45,080 nucleotides of DNA, taken from assembly GCA_035479435.1 (NCBI GenBank), contig DATIIR010000116.1, positions 1-45,080 on the forward strand, given 5' to 3'. Positions 7,098 through 34,245 of the stretch are shown piece after piece. The DNA is from Chlamydiales bacterium. GTDB taxonomy: Bacteria; Chlamydiota; Chlamydiia; Chlamydiales; SM23-39. A program made the position numbers and the translations under genes. The stretch's first letter is position 1; the number at the start of each line of letters is the position of its first letter. Under the pieces are notes generated by a model, which was not told the origin of the DNA, made no database searches, and was given only the letters and a program-made list of their open reading frames with translations.

Positions 7098-8741
7098 TTG
7101 CTTGATGCATTTCGACATTTTTCAAGGCATACTATGATTTCTTCTCCTGGTTCTTTACCTTCTGATCTCGACCCTAATCCTGAATCCCTTTCCGCACCAA
7201 GAGAAGAGAGTCCTCTTTTCAAGGAATTTGCGGAGAAATTGGGTTCTCTTCCGACCCCGGAGGAGAAAATAGCCCACGGCTTGCAGTTCATGCGAAGTTC
7301 CATTTCGCAAGAGGGGAGCCCCCGCTTCCGCGAGTTTTGGGAAGCGCGCCGTCTCGTGCTCCCCTTTTTCAAGGAAAATCTTAACCCTGCCATCCGCTCC
7401 AAACTCTGGAACGAATATGTGGAGCTCACCGTCGAAGCGAGACGGCTGAAGGAGATCCTCGAAGAGCAGAGCGCCTTTGCCATGGAGCAAATCGACCTGG
7501 CGATCAAGGCCCTGGAGGGCGATGTCGCCAATTTTGGCGCACTCCTCGCCGGCTTAGTGGAAGTTCCTTTCTCCGATGCGTCCCAGACGATCCGTCAGAA
7601 GGCAAATGTCTACGGCCAGATCCAGCGAGAGCTCAATTTGCTCAACACATTGGCGAGCCGCCTCAATGGCCTCCGCAAGGAGATCATCAAGACCGACATG
7701 AGGATCCGCTTCAAGACGAAGTTCTTCAAGCGCCTCTCCGACCTGGGCGACCACATTTTCCCCAAGCGGAAAGAGCTCATTGAGACGATTAGCGCCGAGT
7801 TTGAAAAAGACGTCGAGCAGTTTATCGCCAACCACTTCAAGGGCGAAGAGATCGTCGGAGCGCCCTACTATGCGCTGCGCGAAGAGATCAAGGCCTTGCA
7901 GAGCATGGCGAAAGTCTTCACTCTGAATAGCGCCGTTTTCACCCGTACCCGCCTGCGCCTCAGCGAATGTTGGGACAAGGTGAAGGTGCTTGAGAAAGAG
8001 CACAAAAAAGAAGTTCTCGAGAGAAAGCAGGCCTCTTCCCAGCAGCGCCAGTCGATCCAAACGAAGATCGATGCGCTCAAAGAGAAAGCGACCGAGATGG
8101 CCATTGCCGACCTCAACACAGAGATCGACGCCATTTCCGACGAGATGCGCACCATTCAGCTGCACAGAGACGATGTCCGCGGCCTCCGCGAGGAGCTCTT
8201 CAAACTCAGAGAGCCCCATCTCGCTGCGCAGGAACAGAAAGCGCGCGATCTCGAACAAGCTGAAAAAGAGAAACTCCGCATCAAGAGAGAGAAACTGCTG
8301 GCTCTTAAAGAGACCATCGCCCAACTCACAAAAGAAGGGGAGCGGTTGGAACTCGAAGCGCTCCTCGCCTCATTCGGCGAGATCGAAGCGGGTCTTGAGC
8401 AGTTGGAGATTTCCAAGATGGAGAAGCAGCAAATCGAGCGCTCTCTCCGTCCTCTGAAAGACCTGATTGCCGAGAAGAAGGAGCATTCGCTTCTCAATCT
8501 CAGCGACGATGAGAAGAAGACGCTGGAGAACTTGCGCGTTGTGTTGCAGCAGAAGAAGCAGCGGCGCCAAGAGATCAAAGACCAGTTGGAGACCTACCGC
8601 AAGGCTCTGGGAGGATCTAGCCTCGACTTCGAAAAAGCGATGCAGTACCGAGAGCTTGTCGAACAAGAGAAAGAGCGGCTCGACAAAGCCAATGCCGGCA
8701 TCCAAGAGATCGAAGCCAAGATTTCCGAACTAGAGAGTTAA
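7098..8741 (+). CDS. Long coiled-coil protein, function unknown
   Basis: 547-aa ORF starting at TTG 7098, with an alternative ATG at 7134. E/K/L/Q-rich heptad-like sequence covers most of its length. Ser/Pro-rich, probably disordered N-terminus. Confidence 0.7.
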   Translation: MLDAFRHFSRHTMISSPGSLPSDLDPNPESLSAPREESPLFKEFAEKLGSLPTPEEKIAHGLQFMRSSISQEGSPRFREFWEARRLVLPFFKENLNPAIRSKLWNEYVELTVEARRLKEILEEQSAFAMEQIDLAIKALEGDVANFGALLAGLVEVPFSDASQTIRQKANVYGQIQRELNLLNTLASRLNGLRKEIIKTDMRIRFKTKFFKRLSDLGDHIFPKRKELIETISAEFEKDVEQFIANHFKGEEIVGAPYYALREEIKALQSMAKVFTLNSAVFTRTRLRLSECWDKVKVLEKEHKKEVLERKQASSQQRQSIQTKIDALKEKATEMAIADLNTEIDAISDEMRTIQLHRDDVRGLREELFKLREPHLAAQEQKARDLEQAEKEKLRIKREKLLALKETIAQLTKEGERLELEALLASFGEIEAGLEQLEISKMEKQQIERSLRPLKDLIAEKKEHSLLNLSDDEKKTLENLRVVLQQKKQRRQEIKDQLETYRKALGGSSLDFEKAMQYRELVEQEKERLDKANAGIQEIEAKISELES

Positions 8742-8869
8742 AAATTTCACCACAGAGATAGAAACCACAGAGGTGGGGAAGCCCCACACCCCAAGAAGAA
8801 TTTGATTCCCTCCGGGGAGCGCGAGGGCTTCCCTCGCCTCTGTGGTGGCTGTCTCTGTGGTTGATTTTT
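8742..8869. repeat. Long imperfect hairpin (about 40-bp stem) built from CCACAGAG / CTCTGTGG words; possible giant terminator
   Basis: The left arm (8742-8784) pairs with the right arm (8825-8869). Each arm carries the 8-nt word twice, 15 nt apart. A T-rich run (TTTTTCTTCTT) follows. The element starts directly after the stop codon at 8741. Confidence 0.7.
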
Positions 8870-11613: not shown

Positions 11614-11928
11614 ATGGCAATACCACCCATTAACCACGGAGACGCATTGAGCAGAGCCTTGATGGAAAGCGCTCCACCAGCCGATACAGTCGATCCCTTG
11701 GAAGGACCTCAATCACCCGGTCCCGTGCAAAGCGCTTCACCAGCCGATACAGTCGATCCCTTGGAAAGACCTCAATCACCCGATTCCGTGCAAAGGGATC
11801 CACCAGCTGTTATATCGAGCAAACCAGCTCCAGAGTCAGAGCGAGTAAAGCAGACTATGGCAGATATAGGGCGGGTGCTGAAAATCTACAACTCCATGTT
11901 GGCGGAGAGAAAGGCCTCTAACAAATAA
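11614..11928 (+). CDS. Pro-rich, probably disordered small protein with an internal 21-aa tandem repeat
   Basis: 104 aa. GGAG lies upstream of the ATG. Contains the repeat S-A-(P/S)-P-A-D-T-V-D-P-L-E-(G/R)-P-Q-S-P-(G/D)-(P/S)-V-Q twice. Confidence 0.6.
   Translation: MAIPPINHGDALSRALMESAPPADTVDPLEGPQSPGPVQSASPADTVDPLERPQSPDSVQRDPPAVISSKPAPESERVKQTMADIGRVLKIYNSMLAERKASNK
11668..11793 (+). repeat. Two copies of a 63-nt in-frame tandem repeat
   Basis: 11668-11730 and 11731-11793 align base by base with a handful of substitutions. Confidence 0.9.
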
Positions 11929-11937
11929 TTTTTTTTG

Positions 11938-11982
11938 TTGCTAACAGGCTTATCGTGTGAAAGATCTGGACTCCTGATGGCG
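11938..11982 (+). repeat. 45-nt repeat, copy 1 (identical to 13651-13695)
   Basis: TTGCTAACAGGCTTATCGTGTGAAAGATCTGGACTCCTGATGGCG was read at both sites, 45/45 identical. Similarity extends back through the stop codons with small indels in a T-run. Confidence 0.9.
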
Positions 11983-12118
11983 TTGTTGCATAAATCGAAT
12001 TAACCACCGAGCACACCGAGAGCACCGAGGAGAAATTTAGGTCCTTTTTTCTCTTCTCGGTGATTTCGGTGATCTCGGTGGTTATTGAACCGTCTAACAG
12101 CGAAGAATTATGCAACAA
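11983..12118. mobile_element. TIR-bounded palindromic element A (MITE-like, non-coding)
   Basis: The ends TTGTTGCATAA (11983-11993) and TTATGCAACAA (12108-12118) are perfect inverted repeats. The interior hairpin (12002-12083) has CACCGAG three times at 9-nt spacing in one arm and CTCGGTG three times in the other. Confidence 0.6.
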
Positions 12119-12192
12119 GGCCTCGCAGAATCTTGCTTTTTTATCCCGGTATATAAACCGATGGTAACGGAGCTGTAATAGTATATAATATA

Positions 12193-12270: not shown

Positions 12271-13641
12271 ATGCATCCAGTCTCAGCCAGTTCCCCATTT
12301 AGACCTCAAGCGCAACCGCGGTGGATCAAAGCGGGCGCTATTGCCTGTGCCGCTCTCATTGCAAGCACTGGCCTCGGCGCCTCTGCGCAGCCAGTTGAGT
12401 ATCGGATGGGGGGCCCACGCGAGCTCATTCCGTTCAATCGCACGCGCGAAAGGCTCCAGTGTCCCATTGAAAATGCCGATGCATGCATGCGCTTTGGCAA
12501 TCTCGATCGAGTAGCAGAAGAGGAAATCCTAGATCAAACCCTAGATCAATTGAGGGAGCTGGATTCAGAAGACTTCTTATCATATATCGAAGAGAATAGT
12601 GACTATTTTAGTAATTCGTTAAAAATTAGAATTATTGAGCAGGTTTTGCTGAGGAAGCCTAATGTCGTGAGCGCCGTAATCAAAAGGTTGACACCCATAA
12701 TTATTGAAGATCGGTCTTCTACGTGGGCGCTTAGACATATGGCGAGAATTCACGGCATCAAGCTGATCAGAGAACTCGAGTTTAGCGATCAGGATTCAAT
12801 ACCTGGAGTGCGCGATTGTTTCCGTAAAGAATATACTCTCTCCGATCTAGACCATTTAGACCCTTCCTCCATGGTCGCGCAAAATGATTGTCGGACAGTT
12901 GTTCTCGAACCAGGCGGACGAGTACTTTCGATCCCTGGTATTGTGGCGGGGGATGCGTTTAGAAAAATAACAGGCAGAAGGCATTCTCATCCTTCTTTTA
13001 CCATTTATCTGGGGGATGAGCATGCGCATATCCATTTTGCGGACGGGCTGCATATGGGTTTTTATCCCTCCAGCTATCCGCCTTCATTCTTCGGTACTAC
13101 TTCTAAGTGCGTAGTGAGGAGCGATTTGAGTAGGAAGTTCAACGCGGACCTGAAGAATCATCTGCGGTTGAATGTCTATGCATCGGAGGAGCAGGTGAGA
13201 GCGATGAAGGAATACGTCCAAAAATCGGAAGCCGATTGTGATTCTGACTCTATGAAGTATGGTCTACTCCGGAGCAATTGCATCGATTGGGTCCAAAGTG
13301 TTATGGAAGCTTCAAAGACCAAGGCTGATTTTCGCAATGCTTTTCTCCGGAGACAGCTCCATAGTCGCGATGGAGCAGCACCCTTCTATTCAGTGTTGCG
13401 ATCGTCGGGTCCAGAGAGGAGTTTTTCCGATTGGACTGCGGACAGTTGGTCAGAAATGGGTGTGGAAGCGATCACTCCCAGGGTCATCGCTGGTGTTGCG
13501 GCATCGACCGTTATCGGGATGGTAGTAGCGACCTGGAAGACCTGTAAGCTGGGCTGTCGAGCCCTCCGGGCGGTGGGTCGGGGAGTCGGGCCTGCACTGG
13601 GCAGCATCCGTAGTCTTTGCGGCAAACGCCCAATCAAATAA
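12271..13641 (+). CDS. Hypothetical protein with an N-terminal signal-like segment, a candidate permuted-papain (PPPDE/DeSI- or LRAT-like) His...Cys domain and a C-terminal TM anchor
   Basis: 456 aa. The His cluster HAHIHFADGLHMGFYP (aa 251-266) is followed about 80 aa later by YGLLRSNCIDWV (Cys337). This resembles the H ... Y-x-L-x-x-x-N-C-x-x-F signature of permuted papain-fold enzymes. C-terminal TM VIAGVAASTVIGMVVATW. Confidence 0.6.
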   Translation: MHPVSASSPFRPQAQPRWIKAGAIACAALIASTGLGASAQPVEYRMGGPRELIPFNRTRERLQCPIENADACMRFGNLDRVAEEEILDQTLDQLRELDSEDFLSYIEENSDYFSNSLKIRIIEQVLLRKPNVVSAVIKRLTPIIIEDRSSTWALRHMARIHGIKLIRELEFSDQDSIPGVRDCFRKEYTLSDLDHLDPSSMVAQNDCRTVVLEPGGRVLSIPGIVAGDAFRKITGRRHSHPSFTIYLGDEHAHIHFADGLHMGFYPSSYPPSFFGTTSKCVVRSDLSRKFNADLKNHLRLNVYASEEQVRAMKEYVQKSEADCDSDSMKYGLLRSNCIDWVQSVMEASKTKADFRNAFLRRQLHSRDGAAPFYSVLRSSGPERSFSDWTADSWSEMGVEAITPRVIAGVAASTVIGMVVATWKTCKLGCRALRAVGRGVGPALGSIRSLCGKRPIK

Positions 13642-13650
13642 ATTTTTTGG

Positions 13651-13695
13651 TTGCTAACAGGCTTATCGTGTGAAAGATCTGGACTCCTGATGGCG
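13651..13695 (+). repeat. 45-nt repeat, copy 2 (identical to 11938-11982)
   Basis: Direct comparison gives 45/45 identity. It lies 10 nt downstream of the stop codon at 13641. Confidence 0.9.
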
Positions 13696-27030: not shown

Positions 27031-27052
27031 TCTAAGATATCTGCACGCATAG

Positions 27053-27233
27053 CAAGATCAACGATGAGACCGTTGCATAAAAAGAAAAACAGGATATGCA
27101 TGATCTAAGTGGCATGATCAGCAAGATAAAAAAATATCATATCATGCAAATCATGCTGCGCCAGCAATCATGCCTATCCTGTCCTTCTATTCGGTCAAGA
27201 TATCTGAGGGTTATGCAACGGTTTCAACGATGG
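27053..27233. mobile_element. TIR-bounded palindromic element B (MITE-like, non-coding)
   Basis: The left end (27053-27080) is 28/28 identical to the reverse complement of 33797-33824. The right end carries the inverted core TTATGCAACGG (27211-27221). The interior hairpin (27090-27181) is made of GCATGAT / ATCATGC words. Confidence 0.65.
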
Positions 27234-27294
27234 AAACGATTATTCAGCGGGTTATAGGACCTATTTAAAAACCCCTCCGGAGAGGGGTTTCTGT

Positions 27295-28416
27295 TTAGTA
27301 GTCGAAGCGCATCATGGCAGTTAGGCCCTGGATATAGAGGTTGCCATTTGGATTTCTGCTGTATGATCCCGGTAGAAAGGTGTTGTAGTGGCGGAACATG
27401 TTTTGGTCGAAGAACGCCTGAAATCCATAACCAGCTGACAAATCGACATGCCATCTGTTGCAATGGAAATAAGACCCCCAACCGAGCCCGAGTTCGAAAT
27501 CCAAGTGGGTTCTTAGATAATCAATGTGGGATTGCGTGATATCCTGATTCCACAGTGGGGCAAAGGTATCATGTTCTCTTTCGCTCAGATTGTACCGTGT
27601 ATAGAGCATGTCCACGGCAGCATCGCCATAGACTCTAAAGCCAGATCTGAATAACCAATTTGCGCCAACCCCTGCGCGAGGACCAATTCCCCAAGAGACA
27701 GATTGATTGATAGTCGTCCACTCCCGGACCAATCCCACGTCGGGCGGCACGGTGGCGGGTGGCTCCGCGTAAACGGCAGTATGCTTTTGACGGATCCAAG
27801 CTCCTCTTAAGCCGAAATAGGGTCGGAGAGATAACTTTCTCCCGACATAATAGCTCCTTGCTAGTTCGGCATCGAGGAAATCGAACTTGAAGCGCCAAGT
27901 TCCTACAACAGAGGTGTACGATGCAGCTTCATTCAAAGGACTTCCCCACAAAGGGAGAATATTACCAAGTGCAGTTGTTGGTGCATGGGCATCCGTGCTA
28001 TTCTTCCCATGGAGCCAGGTATATTCGGCGTAGCCGTCCCAACCGTCGTAATCAAAATTCATTCCAACCCCCACTTTAAAACCGGGTTTATACTGGAAGT
28101 TCTCATTGATTAGATTTCCCTGGATCCCAGATACATCTGTGTCAGCTTGGGCTATTGTATCGGCAATTCCAAGCTCCATGTTTTCTTGCTTAGGTTGCCA
28201 ATAGATGAAACTGCCTTCCGCGTAGACGTCATAACATCTATCCACCTGGATGCGGGCAGGTGCATTATAAGCCGCTGGTAGCTGAGTACAGACCAGCTCG
28301 TGGCCCTGCTCGTAGAATGGACCAGATGGACAACACTGATTGTCTTCGCCGAATGCAGAACTGGCAGCAATGAGCGATACCACCACCCAAGGTGCTGTTT
28401 TAGGGAATAAGTTCAT
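27295..28416 (-). CDS. MOMP-like Cys-rich outer-membrane porin, paralog 1
   Basis: Signal peptide MNLFPKTAPWVVVSLIAASSAFG, Cys cluster (QCCPSG...VCTQ), alternating beta-strand pattern and a C-terminal MMRFDY aromatic terminus. Confidence 0.8.
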   Translation of the reverse strand: MNLFPKTAPWVVVSLIAASSAFGEDNQCCPSGPFYEQGHELVCTQLPAAYNAPARIQVDRCYDVYAEGSFIYWQPKQENMELGIADTIAQADTDVSGIQGNLINENFQYKPGFKVGVGMNFDYDGWDGYAEYTWLHGKNSTDAHAPTTALGNILPLWGSPLNEAASYTSVVGTWRFKFDFLDAELARSYYVGRKLSLRPYFGLRGAWIRQKHTAVYAEPPATVPPDVGLVREWTTINQSVSWGIGPRAGVGANWLFRSGFRVYGDAAVDMLYTRYNLSEREHDTFAPLWNQDITQSHIDYLRTHLDFELGLGWGSYFHCNRWHVDLSAGYGFQAFFDQNMFRHYNTFLPGSYSRNPNGNLYIQGLTAMMRFDY

Positions 28417-28473
28417 TTTTGCTCTCCAATTTGGATGATCGTATTTATTTTTCCGTCCTTGAATGCGGGACTA

Positions 28474-29598
28474 CTAGTAGTCTATGCGCATCATCGCTGT
28501 TAGTCCTTGGATATAGAGGTTGCCATTTGGGCTAAAACTGTATCCCACTTCGCCAGCATTAAAATGGCGGAACATGTTTTGGTTGAAAAATGCTTGGAAT
28601 CCATAACCTGCTGACAAATCGACATGCCACCTGTCGCAATGGAAATAAGACCCCCAGCCGATCCCAAGTTCGAGATCGAGGTGAGTTCTCAGATAACCGG
28701 TGTCGCTCTGTGTTATATTCTGAGCCCATGCCGTATCCAGCGTATCCGCTTCTCTCACTTTCACATCGTAATGTGTATAGAGAATATCTGCTGCGCTATC
28801 GCCGTAGATTCTAAATCCGCGTCCCAACATCCAATTTGCGCCAATCCCCGCGCGAGGACCAATCCCCCAAGAGACGGATTGATTTTTGATTGTCCAGTTG
28901 GAGACGCCATTTGCATTATCTGAGCTGTCAGTGTTGATGTAATGGGCAATGTGCTTTTGACGGATCCAAGCTCCTCTTAAACCAAAATAAGGGTAGAGGG
29001 ACAATCTTTTTCCGACATAATAGCTTCTCGATAACTCTCCATCGAGGAAATCGAACTTGAAGCGCCAAGTTCCTTCTGCGGAAGTGAACGTGTTCAAACC
29101 ATGCACAGGACTTCCCCACAGGGAGAGAATATTTCCCCCTGGGGTACCAGGTCCGTTTGAGCTTGTGGTATTCGTTCCATGGAGCCATGTATATTCGGTA
29201 TAAGCATCCCACTCATCGTACGCAAAATTCATTCCAATCCCAACTTTGAAGCCAGGTTTGTACTGGAAATTTTCGTCGATGAGATTCCCCCGAATCCCGT
29301 TGAATTCTATGTCTGGCAACAGTTGTGTATTGGAAACTCCAAGCGCCATGTCCTCCTGTTCTGGCTGCCAGTAGATAAAGCTGCAGTCTGCGTAAATATC
29401 CCAACATCTTTTCACGTCGATGCGGGCGGGGGCGTTATATCCAGCCTTCAGCGGTGGACAGTCCATCCCCTGGCTCTGATCGAGACCACAACACTTCTGT
29501 GCATCAGGTGAACAACATTGATTATCTTTGCCGAATGCAGAACTAGCAGCAATGAGCGATACCACCACCCAAGGCACTGTTTTAGGGAATAAATTCAT
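28474..29598 (-). CDS. MOMP-like Cys-rich outer-membrane porin, paralog 2
   Basis: Near-identical signal peptide and C-terminus (MMRIDY) to paralog 1. The Cys cluster differs (QCCSPDAQKCCGLDQSQGMDCPP). Confidence 0.8.
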   Translation of the reverse strand: MNLFPKTVPWVVVSLIAASSAFGKDNQCCSPDAQKCCGLDQSQGMDCPPLKAGYNAPARIDVKRCWDIYADCSFIYWQPEQEDMALGVSNTQLLPDIEFNGIRGNLIDENFQYKPGFKVGIGMNFAYDEWDAYTEYTWLHGTNTTSSNGPGTPGGNILSLWGSPVHGLNTFTSAEGTWRFKFDFLDGELSRSYYVGKRLSLYPYFGLRGAWIRQKHIAHYINTDSSDNANGVSNWTIKNQSVSWGIGPRAGIGANWMLGRGFRIYGDSAADILYTHYDVKVREADTLDTAWAQNITQSDTGYLRTHLDLELGIGWGSYFHCDRWHVDLSAGYGFQAFFNQNMFRHFNAGEVGYSFSPNGNLYIQGLTAMMRIDY

Positions 29599-29619
29599 TT
29601 TTGCTCTCCAATTTGGGTG

Positions 29620-30741
29620 TTAGTAGTCGATGCGCATCATTGCGGTTAGTCCCTGGATATAGAGATTGCCATTGGGACTGTAGCTGTACGCTTCAACTAA
29701 AGCATTAAAATGTCGGAACATATTTTGGTTGAAGAACGCCTGGAATCCATAACCTGCCGATAGATCGACATGCCAAGCGTTACAGTTATAATAGGAGCCC
29801 CATCCGATCCCGAGTTCGAGATCGAGGTGAGTTCTTAGATAACCGACATCGCGTTGTTCGATATTCGGATTCCATGTAAGAAAATCGGTATCGTTTTCCG
29901 TCGTACTCACGTTATAACGTGTATAGAGAATATCTGCAGCGCCATCCGCATAGATCCTAAAGCCGCGCCCAAACATCCAATTCGTCCCGATCCCTACTCG
30001 AGGCCCAACTCCCTGGGAGACGGATCGATCAGTGATGATCCAGTTAGATAGAGTGGCTCCCTCCACTGCCTCGGTATTGACATAATGGGCAAGATGTTTC
30101 TGGCGGATCCAAGCTCCCCTTAAGCCTAAGGAAGGGCGGAAAGACAATTTTTTTCCAACATAATAACTTCTTGCTAACTCGACATCGACGAAATCGAATT
30201 TAAAGCGCCAAGTTCCTTCAGCGCTAGTGAATGACTCTGCGCTATTTTCCCCGTGCTCAGGCATCCCCCACAGCGCAAGAATATTTCCATTGGAACTCGT
30301 GCTATCCGCTCCATGGAGCCACGTATATTCAGCATAGGCGTCCCACGCATCGTATTCGAAATTCATCCCAACCCCTATTTTGAAGCCAGGTTTGTACTGG
30401 AAATTTTCGCCAATGAAACTTCCCTGCAGTCCGTGCGAGGCTATCTCAGCCTCCAGTATCGTACTTGAAATTCCGAGTTCCATATTCTCTTGCTGGGGTT
30501 GCCAGTAGATAAAGCTGCCGTCCGCGTAGACATTCCAACATCTATTGACATCGATGCGGGAAGAGGCATTATATACAGCTGGCAGTTGAGTGCAGTCCAG
30601 ACCATGGCCCTGCTCATAGAATTGCCCCGGAACACACTTTTTTGCAGGCGCTGGACAGCCCTGATTGTCTTGGCCGAATGCAGAAGTAGCGGCGATGAGC
30701 GATACCACCAGCCAAGGCGCTTTATTAGGGAATAAATTCAT
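29620..30741 (-). CDS. MOMP-like Cys-rich outer-membrane porin, paralog 3
   Basis: The ATG at 30741 (MNLFPNKAPWLVVS...) matches the paralog starts and the shared upstream CAAATTGGAGAGCAAA. The ORF-track TTG at 30753 is less likely. Confidence 0.8.
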   Translation of the reverse strand: MNLFPNKAPWLVVSLIAATSAFGQDNQGCPAPAKKCVPGQFYEQGHGLDCTQLPAVYNASSRIDVNRCWNVYADGSFIYWQPQQENMELGISSTILEAEIASHGLQGSFIGENFQYKPGFKIGVGMNFEYDAWDAYAEYTWLHGADSTSSNGNILALWGMPEHGENSAESFTSAEGTWRFKFDFVDVELARSYYVGKKLSFRPSLGLRGAWIRQKHLAHYVNTEAVEGATLSNWIITDRSVSQGVGPRVGIGTNWMFGRGFRIYADGAADILYTRYNVSTTENDTDFLTWNPNIEQRDVGYLRTHLDLELGIGWGSYYNCNAWHVDLSAGYGFQAFFNQNMFRHFNALVEAYSYSPNGNLYIQGLTAMMRIDY

Positions 30742-30810
30742 TTTGCTCTCCAATTTGGGCGATCGTCGTATCTAGCTTGACCTAGAATTCTCGCACAGTA
30801 TTCTACTGTC

Positions 30811-33382: not shown

Positions 33383-33486
33383 GGAAATCCGTCACAAGTT
33401 TTTCCGGGCGAGCATGCCAGATCACAATTAAAACCGGAAGGTCAAAAACCTAAGCGGCCCCGCCTTCTGAGGCATTGGACAGAAAA

Positions 33487-33557
33487 AACGATTGAATGAT
33501 GTAACGATTGAACGATAGGAATTTTTTATTTTTTTATCGTTAAATCGTTAAATCGTT
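33487..33557. repeat. Hairpin built from AACGAT(T) / ATCGTT words, abutting element C
   Basis: TAACGATTGAACGATA pairs with TATCGTTAAATCGTTA. A further AACGATT/AATCGTT pair lies beyond a bulge. Confidence 0.6.
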
Positions 33558-33824
33558 GAGACCGTTGCATAACCCCTAGTCCAGCTCCACGCGAAGCTTG
33601 TTTTTCCCTCTGCGTCTCTCTAGCCTCAGGGATCTGCTTTGCCTCTGCGATTGCTCTTTGCGAGAGTCTCGGGTCCAAAACGCCAATGAGAGGATATCGC
33701 AGAGGCAAGGCAAGAACCGAGACGCAGAGACGCAGAGGAAAAATTTTGGAAATATCCCTCAAAACCTCTGGTTTAAATCCTGCTGAGGCTCACGAGTTAT
33801 GCAACGGTCTCATCGTTGATCTTG
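33558..33824. mobile_element. TIR-bounded palindromic element C (MITE-like, non-coding)
   Basis: GAGACCGTTGCATAA (33558-33572) and TTATGCAACGGTCTC (33797-33811) are perfect 15-nt inverted repeats. The right end extends to a 28-mer shared with element B. The interior hairpin (33601-33743) is made of CTCTGCG / CGCAGAG words. Confidence 0.65.
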
Positions 33825-33908
33825 TTGAGGTTATCATGGACTCTCGCTGTACTAATTGTATGTTATCTTTTTCATTTATCATTGATAATAAGCGACTTAA
33901 GTTATATT

Positions 33909-33949
33909 TTGACATTTATTTTGTAATGGTGTAACATTACATGTATACA
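33909..33949 (+). promoter_or_regulatory. Putative trpR/trp-operon promoter (TTGACA-17 nt-TAACAT) with overlapping palindromes (candidate TrpR operator)
   Basis: -35 at 33909-33914 and -10 at 33932-33937. The near-palindrome TGTAACATTACA (33930-33941) and the perfect palindrome TGTATACA (33942-33949) cover the -10/+1 region. Confidence 0.4.
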
Positions 33950-33963
33950 AAGAAGGAAAAGGC

Positions 33964-34245
33964 ATGGAATCGGGAGAAGATGGTTGGTGGGGCTTTCTAG
34001 AGCTCTGCTCGGGGGTCAAGGGAGCTGAGGCGCTCAACGAGCTGCTTTGGTTGTTTTTGACCCACGAAGAGAGGGCCGATATCGCCACCCGCTTTTTGAT
34101 CGTCCGCGAACTGCTGAAGGGAGAAAAGACCCAACGGGAGATCGCCAAGGATCTGGGAGTGAGCATCGCCAAAATCACCCGCGGTTCCAATTACCTTAAA
34201 ACCATTAGCAAAAATCTCAGGAGGCTTTTAGAAAGCAGATCCTGA
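33964..34245 (+). CDS. trpR: Trp operon repressor
   Basis: 93 aa with the TrpR HTH signature REIAKDLGVSIAKITRGSNYLK and the upstream LTHEERADIATRFLIVRELL. Confidence 0.85.
   Translation: MESGEDGWWGFLELCSGVKGAEALNELLWLFLTHEERADIATRFLIVRELLKGEKTQREIAKDLGVSIAKITRGSNYLKTISKNLRRLLESRS

Follow-up and report, generated by a model that had tools for sequence, protein, structure and literature searches.

Introduction

The IS5 family of insertion sequences includes IS5 of E. coli and also IS903; IS5 itself is 1195 bp long, is bounded by 16-bp repeats and duplicates 4 bp of target. MITEs usually originate by internal deletion, and MITE subfamilies that have only their ends in common with the parent are normal; bacterial examples are Correia/NEMIS in Neisseria, RUP in Streptococcus pneumoniae and ERIC. 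The insertion sequences IS1397 and ISKpn1 target REP/BIME palindromes, and insertion sequences with palindromic repeats as their targets were reportedly surveyed by Tobes and Pareja in 2006. Read 5′ to 3′, attC sites begin with RYYYAAC and end in GTTRRRY, and REP and IS200/IS605 elements have no terminal inverted repeats and no target duplication.

Here, we analysed a stretch of 45,080 nucleotides from a Chlamydiales bacterium (contig DATIIR010000116.1 of assembly GCA_035479435.1), referred to below as the window, in which a sequence-only reading had picked out three elements with conserved ends and unrelated hairpin interiors. The phylum is described as IS-poor in passages of one published account (PMC3196728). 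Our analysis indicates that 27065-27226, named E2, is very probably a 162-bp MITE derived from an IS5-family insertion sequence, accompanied in the window by a second MITE (E3) and a MITE-like element (E1).

Terminal repeats and target duplication of E2

E2 comprises 162 bp with no coding capacity, and the boundaries of its terminal repeats were taken as TGAGACC...GGTCTCA. Its features, in forward-strand coordinates, are the following.

27053-27060: flank CAAGATCA outside E2, a target sequence that is also present at the E3 locus
27061-27064: left copy of the target-site duplication ACGA, read from the sequence
27065-27080: left terminal inverted repeat TGAGACCGTTGCATAA, 16 bp, read from the sequence and located by motif search
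27089-27182: interior hairpin, 'type B', with the base ACAGGAT...ATCCTGT and the words GCATGAT/ATCATGC
27211-27226: right terminal inverted repeat TTATGCAACGGTTTCA, complementary to the left repeat at 15 of 16 positions
27227-27230: right copy of the target-site duplication ACGA, read from the sequence

The identity on which the sequence-only reading was built, in which 27053-27080 (CAAGATCAACGATGAGACCGTTGCATAA) agrees with the reverse complement of 33797-33824 at 28 of 28 positions, was reproduced, and the hairpin of GCATGAT/ATCATGC words that it had placed at 27090-27181 was recovered at 27089-27182. The element span of 27053-27233 and the view of the 28 nt as a terminus had to be given up: the terminal repeats together with the ACGA flanks place the element proper at 27065-27226, and of the 28 nt, 16 are terminal repeat, 4 are duplicated target and 8 belong to the shared target. 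We also considered a terminal repeat extended to 28 nt and rejected it, since the outer 12 nt stand in direct rather than inverted orientation at the ends of each element, and the copies in L087 differ in the outer 12 nt beyond AACGAT.

E2 has a G+C content of 39.5%, compared with 52.3% in the window, and the window contains seven GCATGAT sites, of which five fall inside 27098-27173, two on the plus strand and three on the minus strand. With up to three mismatches allowed, GAGACCGTTGCATAA occurs in the window at four sites (27066+, 27211−, 33558+ and 33797−) that form two inverted pairs, compared with 0.85 expected, and four sites were reached in none of 100 shuffles. The 9-mer GTTGCATAA occurs exactly six times (0.28 expected) as three inverted pairs at 11985/12108, 27072/27211 and 33564/33797. 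A sigma-54 promoter was tried as an explanation of this 9-mer and dismissed, there being no TGGCAC at −24 as judged by eye.

The probable parent insertion sequence

In L098, a locus from a Chlamydiales MAG, the end motif is followed 50 nt later by a DUF772 transposase ORF that runs off the contig, and through homologues of this ORF we reached L119 and L120, two complete elements that have the motif at either end and encode a DDE_Tnp_1 domain further downstream. When metagenome contigs were scanned with the protein as guide, 39 loci encoding transposase relatives at 57-76% identity were obtained. The left repeat TGAGACCGTTGCATAA, with at most four mismatches, lies ~65 nt upstream of the ATG in 33 of these 39 loci, and in 23 it is exact, as is the left end of E2, which matches the repeat at 16 of 16 positions. 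Both ends are found in 29 of the 39, the right end being TTA[ACT]GCAACGGTCTCA ~130 nt past the stop codon, and full copies are 1160-1217 bp long. The encoded transposase is a single protein of ~320 aa with the Pfam domains DUF772 and DDE_Tnp_1, and a reconstructed 330-aa version scored 296 bits against the NCBIfam model NF033581 'IS5 family transposase', the cut-off of which is 140. Judged by these sequence matches, the ends of E2 are the terminal inverted repeats of an IS5-family insertion sequence that encodes a DDE transposase. More distant relatives, at ~40% identity, have end variants such as TGAGATCGTTGAATAA and GGGCCTGTTGCGTAA, and a 362-kb Chlamydiales contig contains a degraded related insertion sequence of the TGAGATCGTTGAATAA type.

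An exact 3-bp duplication flanks 6 of 28 full insertion sequence copies (0.44 expected). The other 22 of the 28 lack a duplication, probably because they are chimeric metagenome assemblies over a multi-copy repeat, as we assume; copies L131 and L132 have their left flank in common but not their right one. No full-length insertion sequence with these ends was found in the host sequence covered, which comprises the window and one 16.5-kb contig of GCA_964460525.1. Within the window, tblastn found no transposase of the parental IS5 type (best E-value 0.19), in agreement with the earlier statement that the window holds no transposase, and no gene lies in E2.

Origin of the E2 interior

The interior of E2 aligned with the 3′ untranslated region (UTR) of insertion sequence copy L137 with a local score of 69 over ~97 nt, whereas shuffled sequences gave a mean of 16, a standard deviation of 2.4 and a maximum of 28. 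E2 corresponds to the left terminal repeat plus the last ~145 bp of an L137-like insertion sequence, an arrangement that implies an internal deletion, and by this alignment E2 looks like an internal-deletion derivative of such an element. It has kept the two 16-bp terminal repeats (TGAGACCGTTGCATAA) of the parent and ~130 bp of the parental 3′UTR with its long hairpin, and the transposase gene has been lost.

E3 and insertion into AACGAT-word arrays

The second probable MITE is embedded in a hairpin of another type.

33485-33556, with the rest at 33813-33825: 'type C' hairpin of AACGAT/ATCGTT words, its right arm split by E3
33553-33556 and 33813-33816: the two copies of the E3 target-site duplication TCGT
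33557-33812: E3, 256 bp, with TGAGACCGTTGCATAA at 33557-33572 and its exact complement at 33797-33812

The ends of E3 match the repeat at 16 of 16 positions on both sides, and its TCGT flanks equal the ACGA of E2 in the opposite orientation. The words of its interior hairpin are CTCTGCG/CGCAGAG, in tandem in one arm according to TRF, and the E3 interior has no homologue among the insertion sequence or MITE copies compared. The type C hairpin around it consists of tandem words with a period of 8 in 3.8 and 2.8 copies (TRF) and matched none of the insertion sequence copies compared.

An array like that of type C also adjoins the insertion sequence of L098, a locus from another Chlamydiales MAG, and the MITE of L087, pointing to a possible hotspot of insertion. 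When the empty sites of E2 and E3 are reconstructed, both contain ATCGTTGATCTTG, with further ATCGTT words before it. Within the 1.1 Mb examined, tandem ATCGTT/AACGAT words are confined to three places, namely the E2 locus, the E3 locus and L098, and in each of them they adjoin the terminal repeat; the E2-like copies at both ends of the L087 contig are flanked by AACGA-T...A-ACGA. This pattern indicates a target preference rather than a longer element end. The sub-lineage appears, from the recurrence of the pattern, to insert by preference into AACGAT/ATCGTT words standing in tandem in hairpin arms, and because of this preference the 12 outer bases are identical at the E2 and E3 loci.

An ORF of 82 aa (33686-33934) runs across the right half of E3 and is annotated as a gene in a public assembly (L204); no Pfam hit is recorded for it, and the call is probably spurious. 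Some 85 nt separate E3 from a sigma-70-like promoter match (TTGACA-17-TAACAT) downstream of it, which precedes trpR and then an anthranilate synthase gene (33909-34245 region), and E3 could affect the regulation of the trp operon.

E1 and a stand-alone hairpin

Two further features carry a hairpin of 'type A'.

8741-8869: stand-alone type A hairpin of CCACAGAG words, with A and T runs at its flanks
11979-12122: E1, MITE-like, with the ends GGCGTTGTTGCATAA and GGCCTTGTTGCATAA and a type A hairpin of CACCGAG words

The proposal that all three elements have common ends stood for E2 and E3, which have the same ends, but not for E1, whose terminal repeat GGC[G/C]TTGTTGCATAA differs from theirs outside the TTGCATAA core. 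The E1 ends resemble the GGGCCTGTTGCGTAA of more distant IS5 relatives and are those of a related IS5 lineage, so that by its ends E1 does not belong to the same family as E2 and E3; no clear target-site duplication was seen in its flanks. The arms of E1 are tandem words with a period of 9 in 2.8 and 2.9 copies (TRF), and the 3′UTRs of insertion sequence copies L126 and L142 contain hairpins of ATCAC[AG]GAG words with which the CACCGAG-word hairpin of E1 can be aligned.

The hairpin at 8741-8869 lies without terminal repeats between an unannotated ORF and a type III glutamine synthetase gene. It belongs to the same hairpin family as the interior of E1 and the 3′UTR hairpins of L126 and L142 (score against L142 of 33, shuffle maximum 24), and it could be a decayed MITE. 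Compensatory changes affect 3 of 28 pairs in the alignment of type A hairpins, which fits maintenance of the hairpin, a comparison in which selection at the DNA level and at the RNA level are not separable.

The surroundings of E1 contain repeats of their own. A 61-nt repeat, 96.7% identical between 11922-11982 and 13635-13695, starts in each copy at the stop codon of an ORF (11614..11928 and 12271..13641), and its first copy ends exactly where the left end of E1 begins. The second copy, 13635-13695, was tried as an empty site for E1 and rejected, as the 61-nt repeat stops at the left edge of E1 and the right flanks are unrelated. Inside ORF 11614..11928, a tandem repeat with a 63-nt period extends over 11666-11807 (2.3 copies, 91% matches).

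Tandem words in the hairpins

All five window hairpins (E1, E2, E3, 8741-8869 and the AACGAT-word hairpin) contain a 7-mer that occurs at least twice on each strand, and the same holds for the hairpins inside the insertion sequences L142, L119 and L075; the non-chlamydial L038 and L039 show the full word pattern or a weaker form, with two to three occurrences on one strand and one on the other. The pattern is missing in six chlamydial MITE copies (L001, L012, L030, L106, L114a and L114b). The single word grammar that the sequence-only reading had described thus holds in that tandem words recur in several hairpin types, and does not extend to these six copies. Types A and B are carried by some insertion sequence lineages and their MITEs, and the grammar is not family-defining. 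The accompanying remark that ordinary MITE copies do not diverge this way is mistaken: it is usual for subfamilies to keep only the parental ends, and homologous interiors are found in the Rhabdochlamydiaceae copies L001, L012 and L030.

The tandem-word hairpins could be seen as an independent portable module, for example a bidirectional terminator cassette or a protein-bound array, which is moved or exchanged by itself and for which the elements with terminal inverted repeats are one carrier among others. Type A is indeed found in three contexts, namely inside E1, in the 3′UTRs of L126 and L142, and alone at 8741-8869, where a simple deletion of an insertion sequence does not explain it, and type B is found in E2, in the 3′UTR of L137 and, as a related CAGGATGG-word hairpin, in the 5′UTR of L119. 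Moreover, L126 and L137 have nearly identical 5′ ends (77.9% identity overall), yet different hairpin types at the same 3′ position, and the majority of insertion sequence copies have no such long hairpin. However, no boundaries, duplications or ends of its own were found for such a module, and the insertion sequence copies compared are only 70-80% identical, so that divergence and indels in a fast-evolving UTR can explain the hairpin differences. Only one hairpin stands alone, for which a decayed MITE is possible, and the words differ among hairpins, so that no single binding protein fits. We therefore consider an independent module distinctly unlikely, and of the hairpin cassettes recognised by a protein, as proposed earlier, there remains only a minority addition to the derivation from an IS5-family parent. 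In one such addition, the word hairpins (A, CAC-N-GAG; B, GCATGAT/CAGGAT; C, AACGAT) would be a distinct class of portable modules that serve this IS5 clade as its favoured landing pads and are captured time and again into its UTRs, with insertion sequence, MITE and hairpin spreading jointly, which we regard as unlikely. As for the words, our guess is slippage followed by palindrome symmetrisation, and the arrays might have been built in this way or might be insertion and excision footprints at AACGAT.

Dispersal and polymorphism

A scan for GARACCGTTGCATAA, using one genome per species, returned at least 118 loci; the query is a 15-mer with one two-fold degenerate position, for which ~2,000 chance sites are expected in 596 Gb, so that most of its matches are due to chance. 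Among the matches listed, at least nine loci lie in Chlamydiota MAGs. Inverted motif pairs ~150 bp apart were found at unrelated loci (L001, L012, L030, L106 and, twice, L114) of Chlamydiota MAGs including Rhabdochlamydiaceae. Exact 3-bp duplications (GAG, ATA, TAT and ATT) flank four of five other chlamydial MITE copies. The length of the duplication is thus inconsistent, with 4 bp at E2 and E3 as opposed to 3 bp in the majority of their relatives.

MITE-like elements with the variant ends GGAGACCGTTGCATAAC...GTTATGCAAAGGTCTCC are present in Chloroflexota, Nitrospinota and Syntrophaceae MAGs (L013, L019, L037, L038, L039, L043 and L099). Several elements with GGAGACCGTTGCATAAC ends have inserted into REP-like hairpins (TTCCCGC...GCGGGAA), at the GCAAG loop, and insertion into hairpin-forming repeats may be general for this IS5-family clade.

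The contig CAYWQU010000031.1 of MAG GCA_964460525.1 matches the window and carries an identical E2. In same-species assemblies, E2 is present in L123 and E3 in L205, L206 and L208, and E3 was also recovered from the Logan assemblies SRR9179560 and SRR9179562, which are interrupted within its hairpin; likewise, the L087 contig breaks within E2-like copies at both ends. The Logan contig L122 (SRR9179560), which approaches E2 from the left, ends at window position 27066; exactly up to this base the E2-filled allele agrees with the predicted empty allele (...GCATAGCAAGATCAACGATGGAAACGATTATTCAGC...), and this stopping point may reflect presence/absence heterogeneity in the sample. Exact-protein matches to the neighbours of E2 and E3 were obtained only from same-species assemblies that contain the elements, and no orthologous empty site was available because the next-nearest relatives of the porin beside E2 are at most 64% identical. 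The idea of a dispersed family gains from the paired ends at unrelated loci in Chlamydiota MAGs, while no unambiguous empty site was found.

Hairpin function and genomic neighbourhood

E2 has a 2H phosphoesterase gene on one side and a porin gene on the other, and the neighbours of the window elements are housekeeping genes. The porin gene beside E2 has a canonical terminator of its own at 27269-27290. The minus strand of 27295-30753 is occupied by a tandem array of three porin paralogues of the Legionella_OMP / Lpg1974 type with 64-66% mutual identity. The named porin relatives among the matches listed are all from Chlamydiales, Chlamydiota or Chlamydiia, which makes a chlamydial origin likely in spite of the G+C content of 52%.

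On the minus strand, the E2 hairpin is directly followed by TTTTTCTTTTT, and the hairpin at 8741-8869 lies just past a stop codon and is followed by TGATTTTTCTTCTTC on the plus strand. These trailing sequences suggest terminator or insulator activity, and the hairpins are probably transcription terminators or insulators, or mere passengers. A simple terminator scan limited to loops of 3-8 nt called none of the long hairpins, which fall outside its model.

The predicted folds are very stable: the region 27040-27300 reaches −93.1 kcal/mol, and the regions of E2, E3 and E1 have z-scores of −7.5, −8.5 and −6.8, respectively, far beyond those of shuffled controls. Together with the compensatory changes among type A hairpins, these values could point to structured non-coding RNA genes with conserved closing stems and variable hairpins. 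Such fold scores are, however, unspecific, in that any inverted repeat folds well, and no promoter-like site was found at E2. Rfam 15 gave no match in the window at the gathering score, and at E2 only generic miRNA-precursor families appeared, at 18-24 bits compared with the 60-130 required, so that the structured-RNA family put forward earlier found no match near threshold. In addition, the conserved ends are exactly those of transposase-carrying insertion sequences and are accompanied by target duplications. Taken together, RNA genes are a highly improbable account of the elements, and we retain derivation from an IS5-family insertion sequence.

Discussion

The IS5 ends, the target duplications and the homology of the E2 interior to the 3′ end of an insertion sequence speak for the first of the explanations offered in the sequence-only reading, that of non-autonomous elements mobilised in trans, the mobilisation itself being deduced from what is known of the IS5 family. 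By that analogy, E2 would be mobilised by a DDE transposase encoded in full-length copies of ~1.2 kb that share its ends; the enzyme would bind the terminal repeats and insert the element at a staggered cut. The cut would be duplicated upon insertion, giving rise to ACGA at E2, TCGT at E3 and mostly 3 bp elsewhere.

The elements show that transposons have been active, and possibly still are, in a lineage of environmental chlamydiae, and they reveal no new mechanism. Their practical consequences are that MITE copies break short-read assemblies (L087, L205 and L208), give rise to false gene predictions, of which the 82-aa ORF across E3 is a probable example, and put long hairpins beside genes. 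The repeat TGAGACCGTTGCATAA offers a simple annotation signature for this clade of insertion sequences and MITEs across Chlamydiota and several other phyla. An IS5-type MITE is ordinary bacterial mobile DNA, for which we found no earlier description in environmental chlamydiae: our literature searches on MITEs and IS5 elements of Chlamydiae gave none, in line with the sequence-only reading, which knew of no described family with such an architecture in Chlamydiae, and what was retrieved on IS5-family MITEs in general was mostly eukaryotic work, largely concerned with plants.

A deeper kinship with hairpin-dependent systems, that is, with recombination sites such as attC, with REP/REPIN sequences and their RAYT, or with elements of the IS200/IS605 type, has a vanishingly small probability. 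The likeness, which consists of short inverted ends around variable hairpin interiors in an intergenic position, is superficial. Unlike attC, the window elements have the opposite core order (GTTGCAT...ATGCAAC on both strands), target duplications and DDE-transposon ends, and there is neither a cassette array nor an integrase. Unlike REP and IS200/IS605 elements, they possess terminal repeats and target duplications, and the parent encodes a DDE rather than a tyrosine (Y1) transposase, so that the hairpin-recognising TnpA of the IS200/IS605 type that had been suggested is not needed.

Among known systems, the IS5 family is the one to which the parent conforms, with its DUF772 and DDE_Tnp_1 transposase, a length of ~1.17-1.22 kb, 16-bp repeats and short duplications. 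E2 differs in being a non-autonomous derivative that lacks the transposase, and the repeat TGAGACCGTTGCATAA is specific to the present clade, where most relatives show a 3-bp duplication and E2 and E3 one of 4 bp. The terminal repeat of IS903, GGCTTTGTTGAATAAATCG, has the inner TTG-N-ATAA motif in common with the repeats described here, and the E1 end resembles it. With Correia/NEMIS, RUP and ERIC, the window elements have in common a size of ~100-260 bp, terminal repeats, a target duplication, a non-coding and intergenic character, the potential of the whole element to form a hairpin and possible effects on adjacent transcripts through termination or RNase III processing. They differ in that an IS5 parent has been identified, that the interior of E2 is traceable to a 3′UTR, that the hairpin arms of several interiors consist of tandem 7-9-nt words and that they are inserted in AACGAT arrays. 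The choice of target is reminiscent of IS1397 and ISKpn1, since E3 and the L098 insertion sequence each split one arm of an AACGAT-word hairpin and the Chloroflexota MITE copies lie in the GCAAG loop of REP-like hairpins; whereas the classic cases involve the IS3 and IS110 families and the REPs of enterobacteria and pseudomonads, the present one involves an IS5 clade and a word array.
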